This document shows, in pieces, positions 13,385 to 63,153 of a stretch of DNA of 64,000 nt. The stretch comes from Methanofastidiosum sp. (GTDB lineage: Archaea; Methanobacteriota_B; Thermococci; Methanofastidiosales; Methanofastidiosaceae). The stretch lies in the NCBI GenBank assembly GCA_013178285.1, contig JABLXD010000007.1, positions 18,093-82,092 of the forward strand, read 5' to 3'. The position numbers and the translations under genes were made by a program. Each line of letters starts with the position of its first letter. Positions within the stretch are counted from its first letter, which is position 1. The notes under the pieces are model-generated. The model did not search any database and was not told the origin of the DNA. It saw nothing but the letters and a program-made list of their open reading frames with translations.

Positions 13385-15138
13385 TTGGCATTAAGAGAAA
13401 TGACACCATATAGAAGATTTATGTCAGCTATGGCCGGTGGTCGTGTTGACAGAACACCTACTATAGTACTTTCAAACTTTTGTAAAGAATTAATGGCTTC
13501 AACAAACGTTACCTGGCCAGCATGTCAGACTGATTCAAAGGTTATGGCACAGTTCCAGGCAGGCAGATATGAAGTTTGGGGATTAGATTTACTTATATCC
13601 CACAATGATTTAGTATCTGAATCAACTATGCTTGGTGCAGATATTGATTTAGGAACTGATTTAAGACATCCATCTGTATTAAAACATGTTCTTGAAAACA
13701 CTGACCCAACAAAATACAACTTGCCAAAAGACGTTATATCCAAGGGAAGAAATCCAATTGTTGAAGGTTCAACTAAGATTCTAGTCGAAAAATATGAAAA
13801 ACTTGTTCCTGTTTTTAGAACTGTTACAGGTCCAATGACCATTGCAGGTCACCTTTGGGGCGTAGACAGAATATTAATGTGGTCAAAACAAGAAGAAAAG
13901 AAATTTGAAGCTTGTCTTGATATTTGTACTGATCTTTGTATTGAAATCTTAGGAACTCTGTTGATTCAAGTGGCGCAGATGGATTTTACATGCCTGATCC
14001 AACAGCTTCAGGAGACTTACTTGATCCAAAGGATTACCAGTACTTCCTTGAGCCAAGATATAAGAGAATGACAAAGGAATTAAAAGATACTATGTCTATC
14101 TTACATATCTGTGGTGACACAAGAGGTTACATGGACAGGATACCACACTCTGGATTTGATGCATTCTCATTCGAGGCACCTGGTACCTCAGTTAAAGAAG
14201 CAGTTATGGGTCTTGGAGACAGGGTTACACTCGTCGGAAGTTTGGAAACAATCCCAGTCGTCATGATGGGTACACCAGAATATGTTTACACACAATCACT
14301 TAGAGATATTGCAGATGGAGTAGATATTCTTTCTCCAGCATGCGGTACACCACCAATGACTCCAAATGCAAACATAAGGGCCATGGTAGAAGCTTGTGGG
14401 CCAAAGAAAGTAAAGAGAAAAGTCGTTGCGCTAAGCAAAGAAGAGATTATAAAGAAGTACACACCAGCAAAACCTGAATTTGCAGAAATTACAAAAGCAG
14501 TCATGATAGGTGACGCAGATAAAGCTGAAAAGCTCGTAGTAGCTGCACTCGAAAAAGGATTAAAGCCAATTGATTTAGTAGAGGAAGCATTGTTACCTGG
14601 TGCAATTGGTGTAGCAGAAATGTACGATGGTGGATACGCATTCGTTCCTGAAATATTACTCGCTGCAAACGCAATGAAGAAAGGTATCAGCCACTGCCAG
14701 AGCGCAATGGGAGATGTCAAGCCAAAAGGTAAGATTATTATGCACGTTGCATTCGGTGACGTTCACGCCATTGGAAAAGACATTGTAAAGTCAATCTTGA
14801 TTGCAAAGGGATACCAAGTTACTGATCTAGGGGCAAGTGTTCCATGGGATAAAGTAATTGAAGCTGCAAAGAAAGAAAAACCTGATGTAGTATCCGGTAC
14901 TGCTTTAATGACAACAACAAGAACTGCATTCCCCAAGGTAGCCGAACTTATGAAGAAGGAAGGATTAGAGGTCCCATTCATAGTTGCCGGTGGAGCAGTC
15001 GACCCAGCTTACGCAGAGACAATGGACTATGCAATATACTGTAAAGGACCAGGAGATGCTGAGCCTGTCTTTGAAGGTATAAGAAAAGGCAAGAAGTGGC
15101 AACAAATCAGAGAAGAAGAACACAAGAAATACAAATAA
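13385..15138 (+). CDS. MtaA/MtsA-family (URO-D fold) methyltransferase fused to a C-terminal corrinoid (B12)-binding domain; interrupted by a 1-nt frameshift near 13945-13955
   Basis: The N-terminus MTPYRRFMSAMAGGRVDRTP matches the methylcobamide:CoM methyltransferase family, and the region CIEIL/NSVDSSGADGFYMPDPTASGDLL aligns with MtaA (SIEYAKAQIEAGADAVMIADPVASPDL). The C-terminal half has B12-binding_2 plus B12-binding motifs (GDVHAIGKDIVKSILIAKGYQVTDLGASVP). It starts at TTG preceded by GGAGG. ORFs 13385-14071 (frame 2) and 13990-15138 (frame 1) overlap. Confidence 0.8.
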
Positions 15139-15262: not shown

Positions 15263-16003
15263 ATGAAAAAAATTGCTATTATAGGAGGAACTGGCGGACA
15301 GGGCTCGGGACTTGCATTGAGGTGGGCAAGAGCTGGACATGAAGTCTTTATTGGATCTAGGGAAGAGAAAAAGGCCTGTACTTCTGCCGATAGTTTAAAA
15401 ACGATTTGTATTGATACTGCATGCTCTTTGTTAGAAATAGAAAAAACAGATGTCCAAGCTGTAAAGGAAAAAGTTCCTGAAGCGAAGATATCAGGATTTG
15501 ACAATTTAGAAGCTACAAAGAAAGCAGACATAGTAGTGATAAGCGTTCCTTATTCACACTTAATTCCAACAATTGCTTCTATTAAGGAAGCTTTAACTGA
15601 AGGTAAAATAATTGTATCTGTAGTTGTGCCTCTTTCAACTGCTGTGGGCGGAAAAGCAACTACTATGATATCCCCGTGGGAAGGCAGCGCTGCTGAAGTT
15701 ATCCAGAGTTTAGTTCCAGAAAATGTTCAAGTTATTAGCGCATTTCAGAATGTTAGTGCAGATAGGCTTTCTGACCTTGAAAAAGATGTCGATTGTGATA
15801 TAATGGTATGTGGAGGCTCAAAAGATGCAAGAAAAAACATAATGGAACTTGCAAAGGATATACCTGGCGCTAGAGCAATTGATGGTGGACCACTACAAAA
15901 TGCAAGACTTATTGAGCCAATAACTGCATTGTTGATCGGGATGAACATAAGGTACAAAGTCAGAGAAGGAATGGGCATCAGATTTACTTATCTTCCTGAA
16001 TAA
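15263..16003 (+). CDS. fno: F420H2:NADP+ oxidoreductase (F420-dependent NADP reductase)
   Basis: The 246 aa protein has the N-terminal Rossmann motif IAIIGGTGGQGSGLALRWARAGHEVFIGSR. Throughout it resembles Archaeoglobus/methanogen Fno (DCDIMVCGG, IDGGPLQNARLIEPITALLI). Confidence 0.8.
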   Translation: MKKIAIIGGTGGQGSGLALRWARAGHEVFIGSREEKKACTSADSLKTICIDTACSLLEIEKTDVQAVKEKVPEAKISGFDNLEATKKADIVVISVPYSHLIPTIASIKEALTEGKIIVSVVVPLSTAVGGKATTMISPWEGSAAEVIQSLVPENVQVISAFQNVSADRLSDLEKDVDCDIMVCGGSKDARKNIMELAKDIPGARAIDGGPLQNARLIEPITALLIGMNIRYKVREGMGIRFTYLPE

Positions 16004-16020: not shown

Positions 16021-16464
16021 TTATTCTGAGTATAATCCTTCTTTTTTATTATATACTTCTATTATGTTGCCATCTGGATCATAAAAATAGAAGAATCTCT
16101 TGCCATTTATTTTTGGATGGGGGTGTGTAAGCGTTACTGGCTCTGAAACTGTTTCTATGCAATTATTTACAAATTTTTGGTGAAGTGCATCAACATCCTC
16201 AACTTCAAAAGCTATGTGGTTAAATATTGAAGGACTTTCCATGAGGCCATTTTTGAATTCTACTAGCTCGATATTTACTTTGGATTTTTTATCAGATAAT
16301 ACTGCAAATACAACGTCAAAGTCATTTAGACCCGTTACTTTTTCGAACTGTTCACCGTTAATTGGATGTTCAAAGACTGCCTCTAATCCTAGTGTTTCTT
16401 TATAGAATCTTTTTGATGTTTCAAGATTTGAAACAAGTAAGGCTATGTGATTTAAAATTGCCAT
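16021..16464 (-). CDS. VOC family protein (glyoxalase/bleomycin-resistance/dioxygenase fold)
   Basis: The 147 aa protein has the N-terminus LNHIALLVSNLETSKRFYKETLGLE, typical of glyoxalase I-like proteins. Confidence 0.7.
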   Translation of the reverse strand: MAILNHIALLVSNLETSKRFYKETLGLEAVFEHPINGEQFEKVTGLNDFDVVFAVLSDKKSKVNIELVEFKNGLMESPSIFNHIAFEVEDVDALHQKFVNNCIETVSEPVTLTHPHPKINGKRFFYFYDPDGNIIEVYNKKEGLYSE

Positions 16465-16505
16465 AAATACTTTAAGAAATGGATAGTTTTAAAGGTTTTG
16501 AAATG

Positions 16506-16661
16506 ATTACTTTATAATTTTACTAATGTTATAACCGGTTTTAATATAACCTGAAAGAAGGGAGTTTCCATTATATTACAACCTTTATATTGGATAAACT
16601 TCTTTCCCTATTTTCCCTAATTTTTTCCATATCCTTAAATATATGGAAAAGATGAAATTAA
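16506..16661 (+). repeat. Intergenic module A, copy 1 (156 bp), promoter-like, with hairpin and TATA-embedded palindrome
   Basis: This copy is near-identical to 56501-56656 (same length, no indels; differences are concentrated in 16550-16570). It contains TTTATAAT, the stem TAATATAA/TTATATTA, and TTCCATAT-N8-ATATGGAA overlapping TTAAATATAT. Confidence 0.85.
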
Positions 16662-16690
16662 TCAAATTGAATTTAAGTAAGAGAGATTAA

Positions 16691-17068
16691 ATGACATTAG
16701 ACAATAACTTAATTGTTGTATTTTTATTACTTAGCTTAGTCGAACTCTTAACTTTTTTTTCTATTTTAAATAGTCTAAGATATCGTAAATATGGCAAATT
16801 GATTCGAATTGATGCGAATATTCCAGAAACTCATTATACTGGAAATGGTGTTCTAGCCTACCTAATTCTAATCTTTATGTTTGTTAATCTCTTTGCTATA
16901 TTTCTTTTGAAATTTTGGGGTTTCGTATTTTCAGTTCTATGGATAACCTTTAGCAGTATTTTCCTCTACTGGTACTGGCACACCAAGGAAGATCCTCTAA
17001 ATCGTTTCCACTACGAGCAGAAGGTCTGGGAGGATCCAAGGGACAAGAAGAAAAAGGAGACCAACTAA
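16691..17068 (+). CDS. Hypothetical small membrane protein (125 aa, three predicted TM helices)
   Basis: The ORF has hydrophobic segments and a Lys-rich C-terminus. Its stop overlaps the start of the next ORF (TAAATG). Confidence 0.5.
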   Translation: MTLDNNLIVVFLLLSLVELLTFFSILNSLRYRKYGKLIRIDANIPETHYTGNGVLAYLILIFMFVNLFAIFLLKFWGFVFSVLWITFSSIFLYWYWHTKEDPLNRFHYEQKVWEDPRDKKKKETN

Positions 17069-17752
17069 ATGACATCCGACTTCAAACCCGGCAAAGCATA
17101 CCTGATAGAAGGCAAGGGCATAGAACAGGTGAAGAGTGAGATCAAGGATTGGCTTACTGAAAAAGGGATAGAAGTAAAAGAAGAAGATGAAAATTCACTT
17201 ATAGCGTATAATTATTTTTATAGTTTCAAGATTAGCCAGATATGGATTAGTCTAAAATTGGAAAATCACATTTCTGAAACTGTTATCACTTTTGATGAAA
17301 GAGTATATAGGTTTCAGATGTGGTTGATTGTTGGGGGCCAGTACTATTACCTCGACGAAATAAGAAAAGATATGGTAAGGTATCTCAAAGGAAAAGATGA
17401 AATTGGCATCAATACAATTGGCAGATATTGCGCTTTATCATACTTGCCCATGTTGCCTGCCTTAATATTTTGGGGCGTTCCATTCTTTTCGGGAATGTTT
17501 TCCATCGTGCTTGAAGAGAGTATCTGGAATTTATTTATGAAATTATTTCTAATTTTTATCTTAATTGGTAATTTATGCTCTATGTATCTAGAATTTGTCC
17601 CTCTTAGAAAAAAATTAGACGCTCTTGCAAATTCATATGAACACTATATTGAAAAATATTCGGGAGAAGAGTATAAGGTGGACATATTTCCACTTATTGG
17701 ATATTTTTTTATCTGTCTAATATTCTTCTTTTTTATAATTTACCACATATAA
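17069..17752 (+). CDS. Hypothetical membrane protein (227 aa; about 110 aa soluble N-domain followed by TM helices)
   Basis: It is translationally coupled to the upstream ORF, and the pair is bracketed by repeat modules A1 and B1. Confidence 0.5.
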   Translation: MTSDFKPGKAYLIEGKGIEQVKSEIKDWLTEKGIEVKEEDENSLIAYNYFYSFKISQIWISLKLENHISETVITFDERVYRFQMWLIVGGQYYYLDEIRKDMVRYLKGKDEIGINTIGRYCALSYLPMLPALIFWGVPFFSGMFSIVLEESIWNLFMKLFLIFILIGNLCSMYLEFVPLRKKLDALANSYEHYIEKYSGEEYKVDIFPLIGYFFICLIFFFFIIYHI

Positions 17753-17760
17753 GACGAAAT

Positions 17761-17797
17761 TATAGTTTATTAAGTTAAACTTTATAATTTTACTAAT
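17761..17797 (+). repeat. Intergenic module B, copy 1 (TATAGTTTATTAAGTTAAACTTTATAATTTTACTAAT)
   Basis: This copy shares the 22-mer ACTTTATAATTTTACTAAT with module A and matches 58062-58100 almost exactly. It is followed by the hairpin ATTACAgggcttTGTAAT. Confidence 0.7.
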
Positions 17798-17890
17798 ATT
17801 ACAGGGCTTTGTAATATAATGAAGAATTCAATGAACTGTTTTATCTAAGAAAGGAATTAGTATATAAAAATAAATAAAATAAAATTTATT

Positions 17891-18790
17891 TTATGGAACA
17901 ACTAGTTGTATCCTTATTGTGTCAAATGTTCCATTTGTAGAGTAAGCTACCATAGAGATATTATAAGTTCCTGATGGAACGTTTGTACCTACTGTGAATG
18001 TTGCGCTGTATGTACCTATATTATGTGCCTTTATTGTCTGTGTAGCTGGAGTTAATTCTACTGTGACTCCATCTGGGAGCCCAATGAATCTTACTCTTGC
18101 ATCCTTTTGTGTAAAGAATCCTCTGTTCTCAACTTGTATCATTGTCTGCTGTACACCAGGCAAAACATTGAAAGCTGAGATGATTTTACCATCCTTTATT
18201 ATGGTTGCGCCACCGCTAACTGCAAATCCTTCAATGTCGACTTTTGGGTATAAAGCCTGCTTTCCTTTACATTCACAGATTGAGTAAAGTTTCCAGGAAT
18301 AGGTAATAGGACAATCTGAATTCTCGCTGTTTACAACTTGAATACTTTCAAATTCTTTTATTACACTTCCTTGTATAAATTCATTCTCACTAAAAGGAAA
18401 CCTAATATCCACACCATCTACAACTCCGCACTCTGGGTCAAATTGAGGTGAGCTAATCCCGTGTTCTTCTCCTTTATAGTAAGCTGTAATCCAAAAAATT
18501 GCTAGAGGGGGGTCTCCTGTACATTCTATGCATTCTTGTGTTTGCCCTTTTATTTGGAGATAGTAATAACAATCTTCAAGAATAAAAGAAGGTACACTAT
18601 ATGATCTGTTTTCGCCAGGTTGAAGAGTTGTGTTAAATGACCAAACTAGTTTTTCATTATAGCACTCAAAAGGCACCCCTTCAACAAACATATCGTCCAT
18701 TGGATTCTGACCAAGTACTGTTGAAAGGCTACTAATCGCCAATAAAAATATACCAATTAAAGCAATGATTCCTTTTTTCATGTTTACCAC
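17891..18790 (-). CDS. Hypothetical secreted/anchored Cys-rich protein with a C-terminal Ig-like (CARDB-like) domain
   Basis: It has an N-terminal signal/TM segment (MKKGIIALIGIFLLAISSLSTVLGQ) and 9 Cys. The C-terminus has a beta-sandwich-like pattern. Confidence 0.45.
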   Translation of the reverse strand: MVNMKKGIIALIGIFLLAISSLSTVLGQNPMDDMFVEGVPFECYNEKLVWSFNTTLQPGENRSYSVPSFILEDCYYYLQIKGQTQECIECTGDPPLAIFWITAYYKGEEHGISSPQFDPECGVVDGVDIRFPFSENEFIQGSVIKEFESIQVVNSENSDCPITYSWKLYSICECKGKQALYPKVDIEGFAVSGGATIIKDGKIISAFNVLPGVQQTMIQVENRGFFTQKDARVRFIGLPDGVTVELTPATQTIKAHNIGTYSATFTVGTNVPSGTYNISMVAYSTNGTFDTIRIQLVVP

Positions 18791-18887
18791 CTTTAATATT
18801 CATTTAAATGAAATCTTAATATTATATAAAAGTTTTGGATTTTACCGAGGGATTATTTGAAAGGGCCAATTTAAATATCCATTTATA

Positions 18888-18930
18888 TTTTATTAAGTTA
18901 AATTGAACTATTTTACTAAAATTACAAGCC
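18888..18930 (+). repeat. Intergenic module B-like, copy 3 (degenerate)
   Basis: TTTATTAAGTTAAAttgaacTATTTTACTAAaATTACAAGCC combines the B core with the ATTACAAGCC segment seen in module A2. Confidence 0.4.
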
Positions 18931-20018
18931 TAGTATTTATCAGGCCTCATTTTTTTGATAAGCTTTATTTTTTTAGAAATGTCTTTGCCTCTAACTTTCT
19001 CTGTAACCCTGCCCATCTCATTCTGTTTTATAGTAAGATATTCTATTTCTTTTTTCAGTTTAAGATAATGCTCATACCGACGTGCTTCAAGATCACCGTT
19101 TTCAATAGCATTCTTCACAGCACAGCCTGGTTCACTAATATGGGTACAATCTGAAAATCTACAGTTATTTGAAAGTGCTTCTATATCAGAAAAGACATCA
19201 CTAACATCGTCACCATCAGACCATAATTGAAGTTCTCTCATCCCAGGATTATCAATAATCATCCCTCCATTTGGAAGCATAATCATCTCTCTAAAAGTCG
19301 TAGTATGTCTCCCATGGCTATCAGATTTTCTTACAGAACTAACTTTTTGACGGTTTGTGCCAAGTAGTTTATTAATAATAGTTGATTTGCCTACGCCAGA
19401 AGATCCGAGAAGAGCTATAGTCTTTCCTTTTTCAAGATATTGTTCAATTGACTCCAATCCTTCATTTAACTCTGCACTCAAATTATGTATTGGAACATTT
19501 GGGGCTATTTTTTTCACTTCTTCTAACTTTTGATCGAGGTCATTGCAAATATCAGATTTATTTAGTACAATAACTGGCCTTGCGCCACTCTTTGAAACTA
19601 AAGTAAGGTATCTTTCAATCCTCTGGATATTAAAATCATGATCAAGTCCTGATACAATCAAAACCACATCAACATTTGCAAGTAAGACCTGTTCTTCTGT
19701 AAGTTTACCTGCAATTTTTCTAGAGAATTTGCTCTTTCTAGGTAGAACTTCATGAATAGTTCCCTTGTTATTAATCTCAATCTTTATGATCACCCAATCT
19801 CCAACTACGGGGAAATTACTTTTGTCCAGTGTATTAAATCTAAATTTACCAGAAACTCTAGATTCTACCTCGCCTAGTTCTGTAATCACCATGAAGCTTT
19901 TACGTTGGACTTCAGTGATACGGCCAGGTATCAATCCTTCTTCTTTAAATTCGGTAAAATTATCCTCAAAGTAGGAATCCCAGCCGATAGTTTCAAGATC
20001 AATTGATGAATTTTCCAT
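18930..20018 (-). CDS. rsgA: Ribosome small-subunit-dependent GTPase A (circularly permuted GTPase RsgA/YjeQ)
   Basis: Motif order is G4 (NKSD) then G1 (GSSGVGKST) then G3 (DNPG), with an N-terminal OB-fold region and the C-terminal zinc knuckle CRFSDCTHISEPGCAV, which is RsgA-specific. Confidence 0.85.
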   Translation of the reverse strand: MENSSIDLETIGWDSYFEDNFTEFKEEGLIPGRITEVQRKSFMVITELGEVESRVSGKFRFNTLDKSNFPVVGDWVIIKIEINNKGTIHEVLPRKSKFSRKIAGKLTEEQVLLANVDVVLIVSGLDHDFNIQRIERYLTLVSKSGARPVIVLNKSDICNDLDQKLEEVKKIAPNVPIHNLSAELNEGLESIEQYLEKGKTIALLGSSGVGKSTIINKLLGTNRQKVSSVRKSDSHGRHTTTFREMIMLPNGGMIIDNPGMRELQLWSDGDDVSDVFSDIEALSNNCRFSDCTHISEPGCAVKNAIENGDLEARRYEHYLKLKKEIEYLTIKQNEMGRVTEKVRGKDISKKIKLIKKMRPDKY

Positions 20019-20123
20019 TGAATACCCTCTCTTCTATTTTAAGTAGATGCCCTATCTTTTTAAAAAACTAACATATGAAGATAGAACTAAAGATTTTAAT
20101 ATACCTAATAATCTAATAGATTA

Positions 20124-20588
20124 ATGAATATTAGAAGAGCACAAGAAAAAGACTTACCTAGAATACTAGAATTAAACAATATAGAATCTAAATGGGTGGG
20201 TAAAAAGGAAATTAGCTTTTTTCAAAAATACTGGAATATTCCATTCTTCAGTATAATTGAAGATAGCGATAAAGTAGTTGGATTCTTGATGGCTATGGAT
20301 GACTGCACAGATTATGATAGTGTCAATTTTCTATGGTTTAAAAATAAGTTCAGAAAATACTACTATATCGATAGAGTAATTGTTGATGAGTCTATGAGGG
20401 GCAAAGGGATTGCTTCTATGCTATACAAAGAACTGATAAACAATAAAGGGCCAGTACCTCTTGTAGCAGAAGTAGCTATAGAACCTCAAAATGAAGGCTC
20501 AGTCAAATTCCATGATAAAGTTGGATTTAAAGAGGTAGGAACTCTAACATCTGACGGTAAAAAGGTCAGAATGTATTACCTTGATTGA
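20124..20588 (+). CDS. GNAT family N-acetyltransferase
   Basis: The 154 aa protein has the acetyl-CoA-binding motif RGKGIASMLY. Confidence 0.7.
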   Translation: MNIRRAQEKDLPRILELNNIESKWVGKKEISFFQKYWNIPFFSIIEDSDKVVGFLMAMDDCTDYDSVNFLWFKNKFRKYYYIDRVIVDESMRGKGIASMLYKELINNKGPVPLVAEVAIEPQNEGSVKFHDKVGFKEVGTLTSDGKKVRMYYLD

Positions 20589-20633
20589 ATAGATTTTTAT
20601 AATCAAATAATCTAATAGATAACCTGAGAGACT

Positions 20634-24650: not shown

Positions 24651-24704
24651 GATTACTAATTTATTTACTATAATAAAAATATATCTATTTACTATTGATC
24701 TTTT

Positions 24705-25460
24705 TCATAACCATTTTTTGAACCAATCTAAAGTAAGTCCTATAAGTTCAGACTCATGCTCTTCTTTTGAAAACATGTGGTCTGACCCTTTTATGACAAT
24801 AAAATTCTTTGGATCATTTGCATTTTCATATATCTCTTGTGAATTAACAATAGAAACTAGTTCATCGTTTTCAGGATGGATTACAAGAATTGGTGCTTTT
24901 ATTCTTTGTACCAATTTAGTTGCATCTTGTTTTTTTAAATCTAGATAAAATCCATAGTTTATCCTTATCTTTCCTCTTTTCCAAGAGGGAAATGTTATGT
25001 AACCATCGTTCTTCCATTGAGCTTCCTTTTCCTTAAAGAGCGTATCCCACTCAAGCTTTGCTGGAGCTGCTGCTGAGACTAATGCCTTAATTCGATTATC
25101 ATTTGCAGCTGCGTTTATTGCAACTAGTCCTCCAAGTGAATGCCCGATTATACCTATTTTTGAGATACCTTTCTCCTCAAGAAAATCAATTGCGGAGATA
25201 ATATCATTGGTCTGATTAGTTACACTCATCTCCTCACATGTACCTTCAGATTCACCTATGCAATCACTAAAGTCAAATCTAAGTGCGCATATTCCGTTAT
25301 CTGAGAGTGTTTTTGCGAGATTAAAGTAATGTTTAACTTCTTTGAATCCAGTGAAGTGACTTGAAATTATGGCACATCTATCCCCTTCACCGTCAAGTAT
25401 GCCAACTATCTTAAGCCCTCTTGAATTAAAAAAAGATACTTTCTGCACAGTCATGAACAA
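24705..25460 (-). CDS. Alpha/beta hydrolase (esterase / dienelactone-hydrolase-like)
   Basis: It has the nucleophile elbow GHSLGG and a later HPENDELV motif (Asp/His of the triad). Confidence 0.7.
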   Translation of the reverse strand: MFMTVQKVSFFNSRGLKIVGILDGEGDRCAIISSHFTGFKEVKHYFNLAKTLSDNGICALRFDFSDCIGESEGTCEEMSVTNQTNDIISAIDFLEEKGISKIGIIGHSLGGLVAINAAANDNRIKALVSAAAPAKLEWDTLFKEKEAQWKNDGYITFPSWKRGKIRINYGFYLDLKKQDATKLVQRIKAPILVIHPENDELVSIVNSQEIYENANDPKNFIVIKGSDHMFSKEEHESELIGLTLDWFKKWL

Positions 25461-25538
25461 GAATATGTAAATAAAAATAAAAAGATAATGTAATTCTTAC
25501 TTGACCCCAAACTATTTATAGAAAGAAGTCTTATTGTA

Positions 25539-56376: not shown

Positions 56377-56500
56377 GAATTACTATTAATAAATCGACAA
56401 TCAATAAAAAGATTTTGATTCTGATAGAGATGCAAAGCTTATAATCTTATTTTTTTGAAGTAAATATAATAAGAAAAAACGTATAAATTATAGGGAAAAA

Positions 56501-56656
56501 ATTACTTTATAATTTTACTAATGTTATAACCGGTTGTAATATAATCCAAAACTAGCAAACTTGTCTTATATTACAAGCCTTATATTGGATAAACTTCTTT
56601 CCCTATTTTCCCTAATTTTTTCCATATCCTTAAATATATGGAAACGATGAAATTAA
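56501..56656 (+). repeat. Intergenic module A, copy 2 (156 bp)
   Basis: It has the same length as copy 1 and is collinear with it. It is identical except for a few flank substitutions and the 21 nt hairpin loop (56545-56565). Confidence 0.85.
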
Positions 56657-58066
56657 ATGAATAGAATGCGAACTGAAGCCGATTTATCGCGCCCACCATT
56701 AATAATATTGATATCCCTAGTACTGGGAATTATCTTAACTGGAATTACAAAGACATACTATGGGCAACCTAAATCCATGAATATTATTTACATTTCAATA
56801 TTGCTTTATATTTTAATCATCGTAACTATTGCCTTGGCTTTATACAAAGGGCTAATAACAGAGATGAGGCACAATATATTTTCAAGGAAGAAAGCATTTG
56901 TCAATGATGAAGAAGAGCCTGAGGATAGTATATATCTAGAAAATATGGAGGGCGGTAAGGATTGCTGTCCTTATTGTAATAAAGAAATATTTGACTACTG
57001 GGATATCTGTCTTTATTGTGGGAATAGTTTGAAGTATAAGAGCAGGTTCAGATTTCTAAACACTAGAAATTTATTTTCAGCAAATAAAGCATCAAGCGAT
57101 TACGAAGAAGATCCTGAAGATAGCATAGATTCAGACGATATGGATGATGATAAGGATTACTGCCCCTACTGTAATGAGGAAATATATGGCAGTTGGGACA
57201 TTTGTCTGCATTGTGGAAAAAATCTAGAATTAAAGAAAGGCATAATTTACAAATTCAAGAATCCCATTTCTATTTTATCTATACTCCTGATAGCTTTTAT
57301 GATAATATGGGCCATAACACTATCCTTTGCTCCAAATGCTGAAGAATATACTATGGAAGGAAATTCATTATACAATCAAGGAAAATACGACGAGGCTCTA
57401 GAGAAGTTTGATAAGGCTTTAGAGATAAATCCTAATTTTGCTTATGCATGGGAAGGCAAGGGTCTTGTACTTCATAATAAAGGAAAATACGACGAGGCTA
57501 TTGAATGTTATGATAGAGCTATTGCCATAAATCCTAATTTTGCTCAGGTTTGGTATAACAAAGGACTTGCATTTGAAGAGCAGAGTAATTATATTAAATC
57601 TATAGAATGCTATGATAAGGCAATTTCAATAGATTTAAACTATATTTACGCGTGGGAAGGAAAGGGAATAGTATTTTATATACAAGGTAATTATCCCCTA
57701 GCGATCGAATGCTATGATAAGGCAATTGCCATAAATCCAAACTATGCATCCGCATGGGTTAACAAAGGGGCTGCTTTTTTAATACAAGGAAAATACGATG
57801 AAGCTATTGAATGCTTTGACAAAGCGATTGTTATAGATCCTAATTTTGCTTATGCTTGGTGTAACAAGGGACTTATACTTGGAGCTCAAGGCAAATACGA
57901 TGAAGCTATTAAATACTATGATAGAGCTATTTTAATCAATCCAAATTTTGCTTTTGCATGGTATAACAAAGGACTTGCACTTAAAAAACAAGGTTTGTAT
58001 TTTGAATCCATTATATGTTTTCAAAAGGCAAAAGAACTTGGTTACAAAGAATCGGCCAATCTATAG
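56657..58066 (+). CDS. Membrane protein with two tandem zinc-ribbon/acidic modules and about 7 C-terminal TPR repeats
   Basis: It has an N-terminal TM helix, then the duplicated module EEEPEDSIY..CCPYCNKEIFDYWDICLYCGNSL and EEDPEDSID..YCPYCNEEIYGSWDICLHCGKNL, a second TM helix, and repeated 34-aa units (W-GKG--L---G-Y-EAIECYDKAI-INPN-A-AW). Confidence 0.65.
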   Translation: MNRMRTEADLSRPPLIILISLVLGIILTGITKTYYGQPKSMNIIYISILLYILIIVTIALALYKGLITEMRHNIFSRKKAFVNDEEEPEDSIYLENMEGGKDCCPYCNKEIFDYWDICLYCGNSLKYKSRFRFLNTRNLFSANKASSDYEEDPEDSIDSDDMDDDKDYCPYCNEEIYGSWDICLHCGKNLELKKGIIYKFKNPISILSILLIAFMIIWAITLSFAPNAEEYTMEGNSLYNQGKYDEALEKFDKALEINPNFAYAWEGKGLVLHNKGKYDEAIECYDRAIAINPNFAQVWYNKGLAFEEQSNYIKSIECYDKAISIDLNYIYAWEGKGIVFYIQGNYPLAIECYDKAIAINPNYASAWVNKGAAFLIQGKYDEAIECFDKAIVIDPNFAYAWCNKGLILGAQGKYDEAIKYYDRAILINPNFAFAWYNKGLALKKQGLYFESIICFQKAKELGYKESANL

Positions 58067-58100
58067 TTTATTAAGTTAAACTTAATAATTTTACTAAGTT
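58062..58100 (+). repeat. Intergenic module B, copy 2
   Basis: TATAGTTTATTAAGTTAAACTTAATAATTTTACTAAGTT overlaps the TAG stop of the TPR gene and matches 17761-17797. Confidence 0.7.
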
Positions 58101-62473: not shown

Positions 62474-62736
62474 AAAAATATTTATTATTCTTAATATAAA
62501 TAGGTTATTACCCCTAATTTTGGGATTAGTCTACTATAGTATTGGGGATGATTAAGCTAGTTCTTTAACACTAGTAGGAAGATTTTTGATATCAGTTACT
62601 TATATTGTTTAAAATACCTTTAATTGAGTTTCCCAAATTTATAACAACACTAATGTTTGTTTCAGACTGTTCTTTGTTAGAGGAACACTAGAATAAAGCA
62701 TATTGATAAAAAAATAATATATAACTTATAATGGAT

Positions 62737-63153
62737 TTAATCGAGTAGTCTTTTCTGACCCTCTAATTTTTGGATAGTGGCAATATTTTGACTTGATTCA
62801 AGGCATCCTAAATAATTTCCATCTTGATCTCTTAATGCATAATATTCTATCATTACCTTCTCTTTTTCACCATTTTTTCCAAGAGGGAGGTCAATCCAAA
62901 ATCTTGCCTTATCTCTTATCCCTTCTTTCATCTCACTGATTATCTGTTCAACTTTGTCAAGACTTCTTTCAGGATGGCACTGCCTAACGTCCCTTCCTAA
63001 AGCTGCTTCCGGTCTTTTAAATATTCTTGTCTCGTGTTTATTCCAAGCCAAGACCTTATCATCTTCATTTAGAACTGAAAATTCAATAGGGATGGTTTCA
63101 AGAATTGCTTCAAGTATTTTACCATCAATTTTTCCAATCATATAATCTACCAT
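62737..63153 (-). CDS. PAS-fold domain protein (DUF438-like)
   Basis: The 138 aa protein has a single PAS-like core with the conserved VRQCHPERS segment. Confidence 0.5.
   Translation of the reverse strand: MVDYMIGKIDGKILEAILETIPIEFSVLNEDDKVLAWNKHETRIFKRPEAALGRDVRQCHPERSLDKVEQIISEMKEGIRDKARFWIDLPLGKNGEKEKVMIEYYALRDQDGNYLGCLESSQNIATIQKLEGQKRLLD

Follow-up and report, generated by a model that had tools for sequence, protein, structure and literature searches.

Small att-bounded cassettes without an integrase gene beside a bacterial-type rsgA in Candidatus Methanofastidiosum

In a 64-kb stretch of archaeal DNA (hereafter the window), a gene for the bacterial-type GTPase RsgA lies next to repeat-flanked genes for two membrane proteins and a secreted protein, and this arrangement raises the question of whether these genes came to the chromosome together. 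A preliminary description of positions 16465-20018 had seen an accessory island there and thought it plausible that RsgA was acquired horizontally, perhaps along with the neighboring genes. The window is assigned to Candidatus Methanofastidiosum; its best RsgA matches, at 98%, 79-83% and 66-70% identity, all come from that genus. Methanofastidiosum is an uncultured, methyl-reducing methanogen that is common in digesters. We propose, with a probability of roughly 75%, that two tandem, site-specific, non-autonomous cassettes were inserted beside an RsgA gene that was itself acquired anciently and is now native, and that the cassettes are mobilized in trans. Comparisons of loci show precise site-specific insertion at a recurrent attachment (att) site, tandem accretion, and replacement of cassettes between strains.

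Insertions at two chromosomal sites

Synteny was compared in eight Methanofastidiosum contigs retrieved around RsgA (L001-L008). All eight carry an RsgA orthologue (four genomic contexts, 69-82% identical) and share the gene order aconitase, isocitrate dehydrogenase, zinc-ribbon protein, GNAT acetyltransferase (optional), RsgA, VOC, Fno and a fused URO-D/corrinoid methyltransferase, with 72-140 nt between RsgA and VOC. Since every contig has RsgA next to VOC in the same gene order, both are conserved core genes that lie outside any island, and RsgA was not acquired with the neighboring cassette. This is the outcome that the preliminary description had itself named as counting against its proposal, and its statement that the stretch holds no housekeeping archaeal genes fails for VOC, RsgA and usually GNAT, which are conserved in synteny across relatives. 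Between RsgA and VOC the window differs from its relatives solely by additional DNA. The term accessory island thus keeps its meaning for the membrane pair and the secreted-protein gene, which are inserted between VOC and RsgA, but not for these two genes themselves.

The true insertion, 2,393 nt long (16527-18919), separates the RsgA stop codon from the promoter region of VOC. Two cassettes without an integrase gene make it up, in tandem: one of 1,270 nt carrying memA and memB and one of 1,123 nt encoding a secreted beta-sandwich protein. A 17-bp core, CTTTATA-ATTTTACTAA, bounds each cassette and is present in one copy at the empty site of relatives; it has four matches in the window, where 0.05 would be expected by chance. 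In L006-L008 the empty site reads ...gaaaatatg CTTTATAATTTTACTAA aattattaacctag (RsgA stop), with a single core. In the window, the native left flank and the first core are followed by new DNA, cores occur again at 17780-17796 and 18903-18919 (TTGAACTATTTTACTAA), and the native right flank then resumes. The three repeat copies that had been noted in this stretch are indeed present (16490-16538, 17760-17808 and 18883-18931); as att junctions of mobile cassettes, they hold the key to the locus and are more than a side feature.

These data bear directly on the idea that the whole of 16465-20018, with VOC, the membrane pair, the secreted protein and RsgA, is one horizontally acquired island in which RsgA came with the cassette. 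A bacterial-type RsgA does adjoin repeat-flanked accessory genes, as that idea holds. However, the relatives keep RsgA and VOC adjacent without the membrane and secreted genes, so that synteny already refutes it; the blastn breakpoints, at window positions 16536 and 18910 with a 21-nt overlap, leave both genes out; and the composition of RsgA is native. We consider a one-island origin scarcely credible.

Cassettes at this site are also shuffled between strains. The order in L109 is RsgA, att, a gene for the Cys-rich secreted protein (94% identical), att and an HxlR cassette, while L108, whose RsgA is 98% identical, has a different cassette beside RsgA, with the variant core ACTACTAAC. Cassette content therefore changes between very close strains.

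A second site in the window is occupied by a third cassette, and a 173-nt stretch there is 87% identical to 16500-16672. L009, whose flanking proteins are 98% identical to those of the window, has only 272 nt and a single core between the genes for the ABC ATPase and the radical-SAM protein, and its site is empty; breakpoints from blastn against L009 overlap by 23 nt. Six other genomes also have this site empty, and a second species pair repeats the contrast, with L015 empty and L094 occupied by a different cassette. Beyond the core, the empty sites 1 and 2 are alike (CTTTATAATTTTACTAA-RWTTATTAWCCTAGYAT). Features of both sites and of the adjoining genes are collected in Table 1.

Table 1. Features at the two att sites and in the neighborhood of rsgA, in window coordinates.
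Feature	Position	Strand	Remarks
Fno/npdG	15263-16003	+	TIGR01915, 248 bits
VOC/glyoxalase-family gene	16021-16464	-	Pfam Glyoxalase 3.4e-17; directly downstream of RsgA in L001-L008; core synteny, not insertion
attL core CTTTATA-ATTTTACTAA	16510-16526	+	Native left flank plus core; 10-bp identity segment 16517-16526; same 17-mer once in L006-L008
Cassette 1 left arm, type I (the preliminary description's A module)	16527-16690	+	87% identity with 56495-56667, including about 80 identical nt
memA	16691-17068	+	Cassette 1 cargo; 125 aa, three hydrophobic segments
memB	17069-17752	+	Cassette 1 cargo; 227 aa, N-terminal soluble domain, C-terminal hydrophobic segments
Internal att junction	17766-17796	+	Cassette 1 right arm TTTATTAAGTTAAA, CTTTATA, ATTTTACTAA
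Cassette 2 left arm, type II	17797-17890	+	TATTACAGGGCTTTGTAATATAA...TGTTTTATCTAAGAAAGG...; same ~85 nt in L107, L090 and L109
Secreted all-beta protein	17891-18790	-	Cassette 2 cargo; 299 aa, 8 Cys, conserved C-terminal beta-sandwich
attR	18889-18919	+	Cassette 2 right arm TTTATTAAGTTAAA, TTGAACT, ATTTTACTAA; then native flank and RsgA stop
rsgA	18930-20018	-	Stop codon 18930-18932; circularly permuted bacterial-type GTPase; core synteny in genus
GNAT acetyltransferase	20124-20588	+	Profile match; syntenic in most relatives, missing in L001/L002
Second-site attL core CTTTATAATTTTACTAA	56505-56521	+	One copy at the empty site in L009
Cassette 3	56522-58080	+	Type I left arm, 469-aa membrane protein, right arm
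Second-site attR core CTTAATAATTTTACTAA	58081-58097	+	Core sequence at right junction

Could the repeats simply be ordinary promoter or terminator modules, with presence and absence of the intervening genes produced by homologous recombination or deletion and no dedicated recombinase? The core does contain the TATA-like TTTATAAT, and its location ahead of VOC, the radical-SAM gene and the genes of the cassettes is that of a promoter. But the core is rare, the five att copies being its sole occurrences in 64 kb, and the conserved arms reach 20-170 nt past it on the element side only. The cassettes are also polar, with distinct left and right arms, and an integrase adjoins att at two loci (see below). 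We regard such modules as a very improbable explanation. Two classes of mobile element were considered and rejected as well. For a miniature inverted-repeat transposable element or DDE transposon, the arms are not inverted copies of each other and the flanking repeat is the same sequence at independent loci and in different genomes; for an integrative mobile element exploiting Xer at a single chromosomal dif, there are two occupied sites 40 kb apart in one window. An Rfam scan at gathering thresholds and an ARAGORN scan of the window returned nothing, hence no tRNA target and no known RNA family.

The proteins carried by the cassettes were examined by profile and structure searches. All ORF (open reading frame) coordinates given earlier were confirmed by the ORF listing, as were the identities of Fno and VOC. 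The two membrane proteins had been described as uncharacterized and joined by a TAA-ATG junction, and this holds: the TAA stop codon directly abuts the memB ATG, and neither protein matches a Pfam or NCBIfam family. Like memA, memB has three hydrophobic segments. Homologues of memA (42-47% identity) occur in the cassettes of L093 and L099, the copy in L099 adjoining an integrase gene, and an 83% homologue of memB occurs in the L093 cassette; relatives of memB number only 19 among 1.84 billion representative proteins. PHROGs, Pfam and NCBIfam searches with memA, memB and the secreted protein gave no match. GC content at third codon positions (GC3) in memA and memB is 0.36, about 2.6 sd above the mean, which makes them the sole compositional deviants, and mild ones.

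The product of cassette 2 had been called a secreted protein with nine cysteines and an Ig-like C-terminus. It has a hydrophobic, signal-like N-terminal segment, though eight cysteines rather than nine. Its 191 homologues are mostly unlabelled, and all source labels among them read Methanofastidiosum or Methanofastidiosa; across the family, a C-terminal portion of ~130 aa is 62-72% conserved and sits on variable N-termini. An AF2 model (pLDDT 79.9) is all-beta with two beta domains, the C-terminal beta-sandwich being predicted with high confidence. Foldseek against the PDB returned only generic FnIII/Ig-like matches (TM 0.24-0.31), and on this predicted structure the Ig-like label is acceptable at the level of fold class. 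The cassette 3 protein (56657-58066) combines double zinc ribbons (DZR 5.5e-06) with seven TPR repeats (Pfam TPR_1 2.7e-72). Five head-to-tail 102-nt repeats at 57377-58031, 64-74% identical, encode its 34-residue TPR units. The majority of cassette cargo consists of membrane or secreted proteins, and we speculate that it has a role in envelope variation or virus exclusion.

The element family and a candidate recombinase

Scanning metagenomes for right arm-N7-ATTTTACTAA gave 12 contigs, of which 11 are relevant; the remaining one, L092, was a chance match in Bacteroidota. Eight complete elements with both junctions are now available (window cassettes 1-3, L090, L093, L094, L096 and L109), and they measure 1.1-2.7 kb. 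The cargo is unrelated between elements: outside the window, L094 encodes a 365-aa membrane protein, L090 and L096 carry genes for secreted proteins rich in repeats, and L093 holds an HxlR-cupin-hydrolase-flavodoxin set. The ends are shared: the left arm has T[G/A]TTA[T/C]A and two TTGTAATATAA-type sites, and the right arm has ...TTTATTAAGTTAAA. In the cassette-rich contig L095, a 333-aa ORF (933-1934) weakly matches a DDE transposase (Pfam DDE_Tnp_1, E 0.003), and insertion sequences may also populate cassette arrays.

The left arms fall into two types, in which the pair of TTGTAATATAA-type sites is inverted (type I) or direct (type II), and each of the four exact TTGTAATATAA copies found in the window belongs to a left arm. 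This pattern speaks for protein-binding arm sites rather than RNA structure; because the orientation changes, the possibility that the A module is a structured RNA leader was rejected. The arm of cassette 1, which recurs in L093 (twice), L095 and L094, has its sites at 16539-16549 and 16571-16581 (inverted), followed by the palindrome TTCCATAT-N8-ATATGGAA at 16625-16648, and it probably holds its own promoter (TTAAATATA). Type I arms in general close with a palindrome and, 20-50 nt ahead of the start codon of the cargo, a TTAAATATA box, and it is likely that they contain a promoter.

Where an empty site is available for comparison, the heptamer before ATTTTACTAA at the left junction is the chromosomal CTTTATA, at both site 1 and site 2. 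At right junctions the heptamer differs by element (CTTAATA, TTGAACT, CTGAATG and others). Because the left heptamer is chromosomal and the right one depends on the element, strand exchange most likely takes place inside ATTTTACTAA. We also considered dyad symmetry around the core; the possibilities are inconsistent between sites and we claim no core-binding geometry. Searching viral sequences with the right-arm pattern gave no match, and an IMG/VR match to the core plus left end (L089) proved to be a chance match inside a coding region.

Profile searches found no recombinase encoded in cassettes 1-3. A candidate comes from L099, where downstream of a tyrosine recombinase gene (Pfam 5e-25; PHROG integrase 6e-38) come a memA homologue and then att, ~0.6 kb away. 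In L107, a 348-kb contig, a 77% identical paralogue of this integrase has att 2.3 kb downstream. The family is abundant in Methanofastidiosum metagenome-assembled genomes (MAGs); its members are ~405 aa long with a C-terminal zinc ribbon, and their best curated match is archaeal XerA (121 bits, under the cutoff of 220). Beyond att, L099 continues into a block also present in L100, L091 and L098, with genes for a large terminase (TerL; PHROG 8.5e-41) and a DNA methylase. IMG/VR holds relatives of this block (L114-L119, TerL identity 64-74%), and a search of IMG/VR with the integrase found no relatives. L099 (1-4024), L100 (1-5266), L091 and L098 are tailed-virus-like Methanofastidiosum contigs with an N6/N4 methylase and a conserved 90-aa ORF beside att. 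The placement of the genes is suggestive of an integrase that acts on the cassette att.

In several ways the cassettes recall integron gene cassettes of the kind found in clusters of attC sites lacking integrases (CALINs), which IntI-type integrases recombine at attC sites folded into hairpins. They are short, with 1-4 genes and no recombinase, they stand in tandem arrays and are shuffled between strains, the right-arm GTTAAAC fits GTTRRRY, and archaeal integrons exist (PMC9668308). The details nevertheless point elsewhere. The associated integrase is below the cutoffs for integron integrases (TIGR02249, 70 bits against 265; NF011946, 36-41 against 435) and best fits XerA-like models. Junction patterns put the exchange in ATTTTACTAA rather than at G|TT, empty chromosomal sites have neither GTTAAAC nor GTTRRRY at the junction, no attC-type R''/R' palindrome was seen, and DNA folds are weak at two of three sites. 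The text of PMC9668308, moreover, makes no mention of Methanofastidiosa or Thermococci. We judge it highly improbable that these are true integron cassettes.

A more serious alternative is that the cassettes are what remains, after decay, of larger integrated viruses or plasmids, in which internal deletions left att-proximal 'moron' genes, immobile, between attL and attR. The memA homologue of L099 lies between integrase and att, the same att borders the virus-like block, and loss of the integrase gene after integration has been reported for integrated archaeal plasmids (PMC8371274). Against this, eight independent elements with unrelated cargo keep both complete arms within 1.1-2.7 kb, and they recur in differing combinations at two chromosomal sites in close strains, which would be hard to reach by repeated independent decay. 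We think this origin unlikely, though it deserves more weight than the other alternatives considered here.

We therefore return to cassettes mobilized in trans, for which we hypothesize the following mechanism. A circular cassette with an attP composed of right arm, core and left arm would recombine with a chromosomal attB. The source of the Xer-like tyrosine integrase, acting in trans, would be a related integrative element or temperate tailed virus sharing the cassettes' att. Proteins would bind the left-arm 11-mers as arm-type sites, and in type I cassettes a promoter would travel with the element.

Origin of RsgA and weighing of the proposal

The window RsgA is a clear member of its family (Pfam RsgA_GTPase 8.7e-52, 175.9 bits against a cutoff of 30; TIGR00157, 175 bits against 100) and matches solved YjeQ/RsgA structures in the PDB with E-values as low as 6.5e-37. 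It scores below cutoff with the subfamily models NF008931 (the 347-residue type, 186 bits against 360) and NF008932, and at its N-terminus a possible OB-domain gives a weak RsgA_N match (24.4 bits, E 2.4e-05) just under the cutoff of 27. The motifs NKSD153, GSSGVGKS205 and DNPG256 give the permuted G4-G1-G3 order, and the zinc motif C286-RFSD-C291-T-H293-ISEPG-C299 aligns with the same motif in 1U0L and 2RCN, so that both features are as first described.

In composition RsgA shows no anomaly. Its GC content (0.351), GC3 (0.262) and codon-usage distance (0.120) compare with window means of 0.341, 0.264 and 0.145, and in this region only memA and memB deviate. Native base composition and conserved synteny together indicate that RsgA is not a recent arrival. 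Beyond Methanofastidiosum, its closest relatives have archaeal labels, an ANME-2/Methanosarcinales cluster at 67% and Aenigmarchaeota plus 'archaeon' entries at 58-64%; the next closest, at 50-54%, are bacterial (Elusimicrobia/Endomicrobia, Bacillaceae, Leptospira). In a neighbor-joining tree of the 120 nearest matches, with T. maritima and Salmonella RsgA as the outgroup, a 30-sequence clade comprising the window protein, every archaeal-labelled match and 18 unlabelled sequences was recovered in 287 of 300 bootstraps, and Methanofastidiosum RsgA was monophyletic in 200 of 200. The archaeal clade is placed among the bacterial ~355-aa subfamily, with 52% identity to these proteins and 31-35% to canonical RsgA. 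The parsimonious reading of these sequence relationships is one old transfer from a bacterium to an archaeon followed by vertical descent in Methanofastidiosum, probably with exchange among archaea after the original transfer. Horizontal acquisition of RsgA is thus consistent with the tree as an ancient event, and neither as a recent one nor as one shared with the cassette. According to this scenario, an archaeal ancestor would have acquired a gene that is now fully ameliorated and inherited vertically in the genus, and its product would still be a GTPase that docks on the small ribosomal subunit at its conserved decoding region.

Two contigs with RsgA homologues drew attention in their own right. 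L112 (8001-10228; 'archaeon' MAG JBDRKL010000006) has an Obg-type GTPase gene immediately after the RsgA homologue in an operon-like pair, and this is a second bacterial-style ribosome-associated GTPase beside RsgA. In L113 (8001-11375), a tyrosine integrase gene and a series of small ORFs stand 1 kb away from an archaeal-clade RsgA homologue, and RsgA itself may be carried by mobile DNA in some lineages.

Several points weigh against our proposal as a whole. The 64-kb window holds no integrase, and none of its ORFs of at least 60 aa matched the L099 integrase (blastp, E <= 1e-5); the connection of L099-type integrases to att is one of adjacency and so suggestive, and near its more distant paralogues (74% and 59% identical; L102, L104-L106) no such att occurs in 10 kb. 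The viral relatives L114-L119 contain neither att nor integrase in the DNA retrieved. Cassette mobility is deduced from comparison of loci, with no circular or excised form observed, and the cassettes could be deletion remnants rather than mobilizable units. The exact crossover point is derived from sequence patterns only, and L108 departs from the common core. With regard to RsgA, the tree is a neighbor-joining tree of nearest matches, about one third of its archaeal clade carries a taxon label, and the gene contexts in the archaeal-labelled bins L112 and L113 did not settle their archaeal origin.

Other differences between the window and its relatives were recorded in the course of these comparisons. 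The GNAT gene is bracketed by a perfect 15-bp direct repeat, AATAATCTAATAGAT (20107-20121 and 20606-20620), and L001/L002, which lack GNAT, keep just one copy of this repeat region, in diverged form. The fused URO-D/corrinoid-binding methyltransferase gene (13385-15138) is a single ORF of 579-584 aa in L001, L003 and L006; in the window, a 1-nt deletion near 13949 splits it into two overlapping ORFs, reflecting either a pseudogene or an assembly error. A variable spot at 24690-25489 holds, in the window, a 251-aa ORF with 32% identity, over 143 aa, to the hydrolase-like ORF in the L093 cassette. In its place L001 has an AhpC/redoxin gene with a small ORF, L003 and L006 have neither, and no att-like motif was detected there. 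Finally, ~1.4 kb of L009 (14286-15680) is missing from the window at 62505-62737, with no att motif at the junction; it encodes most of a 472-aa multi-pass membrane protein that by eye resembles a sodium:solute symporter.

Comparison with known systems

The RsgA of the window shares with bacterial RsgA/YjeQ/EngC (T. maritima 1U0L, E. coli 2YKR/5NO2) the permuted G-domain and the CxxxxCxHxxxxxC zinc motif. It differs in being encoded by an archaeon, in belonging to a ~355-365-aa subfamily and in having a basic C-terminal tail. A 2022 review states that YjeQ/YloQ (RsgA) has no archaeal counterpart (PMC9032327), in keeping with the earlier expectation that a bacterial-type RsgA would be rare or absent in archaea; the archaeal-labelled clade found here corrects that review-level claim. 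Being coherent and including labelled members from Methanofastidiosum, ANME-2/Methanosarcinales and Aenigmarchaeota, the clade could offer a way to probe a bacterial 30S factor on the archaeal ribosome.

In the literature consulted, almost nothing concerns mobile elements of Methanofastidiosum: we found no account of cassettes like these, or of an integrase-based element of any kind, in the genus, and a plasmid survey turned up none of its family. The cassette family provides a testable recombination site, with a 10-bp crossover and defined arms, together with a candidate integrase, and the att system is possibly useful for archaeal genetic tools. The locus is also a hotspot at which close strains differ by whole envelope-protein genes, which bears on virus-host interplay and on MAG binning and assembly breaks. 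More tentatively, and with somewhat less than even confidence, we suggest a new archaeal class of platform that is integron-like but mechanistically distinct. Promoter-bearing mini-cassettes of 1-3 kb without a recombinase, carrying mostly membrane, secreted or TPR cargo, would be captured, stacked and swapped at several dispersed 17-bp att cores by a zinc-ribbon-tailed Xer-like integrase shared with a temperate tailed virus, and would drive cell-surface variation between strains.

Among archaeal elements that use tyrosine integrases, AT-rich intergenic att sites (PsiM100) and tandem integration are known, the elements carry their own integrase by definition, and cryptic elements range from 2.6 to 98 kb with a median of 17 kb (PMC8371274, PMC6563490). 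The cassettes resemble them in having direct repeats that correspond to the single empty-site copy, an AT-rich intergenic target, tandem integration and an Xer-like associated integrase, but lack an integrase of their own while keeping both conserved arms.

Accretion is familiar from the integrative and conjugative elements (ICEs) of Streptococcus, whose families include cis-mobilizable elements (CIMEs), att-bounded and without recombination genes, that accumulate in tandem. Like CIMEs, the cassettes have the att bounds of an autonomous relative, no recombination genes and tandem placement. They differ in being archaeal and far smaller (1.1-2.7 kb), in using at least two intergenic attB sites 40 kb apart rather than the 3' end of one gene, and in their presumed helper, which is a tailed virus or a cryptic element instead of an ICE. 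CIMEs and tandem accretion as a concept are reviewed in PMC5704250. Integron cassettes and CALINs, archaeal ones included (PMC9668308), are likewise short, hold one or a few genes, form arrays and are shuffled from strain to strain; here, by contrast, there is no IntI and no attC architecture, the crossover sequence is different, type I cassettes appear to hold their own promoter, and insertion is at dispersed chromosomal cores rather than attI. By analogy, bacterial cis-mobilizable elements and integron cassettes would be the closest functional counterparts of this system, previously undescribed in these archaea, which we see as a non-autonomous variant of archaeal integrative elements with integron-like behavior.

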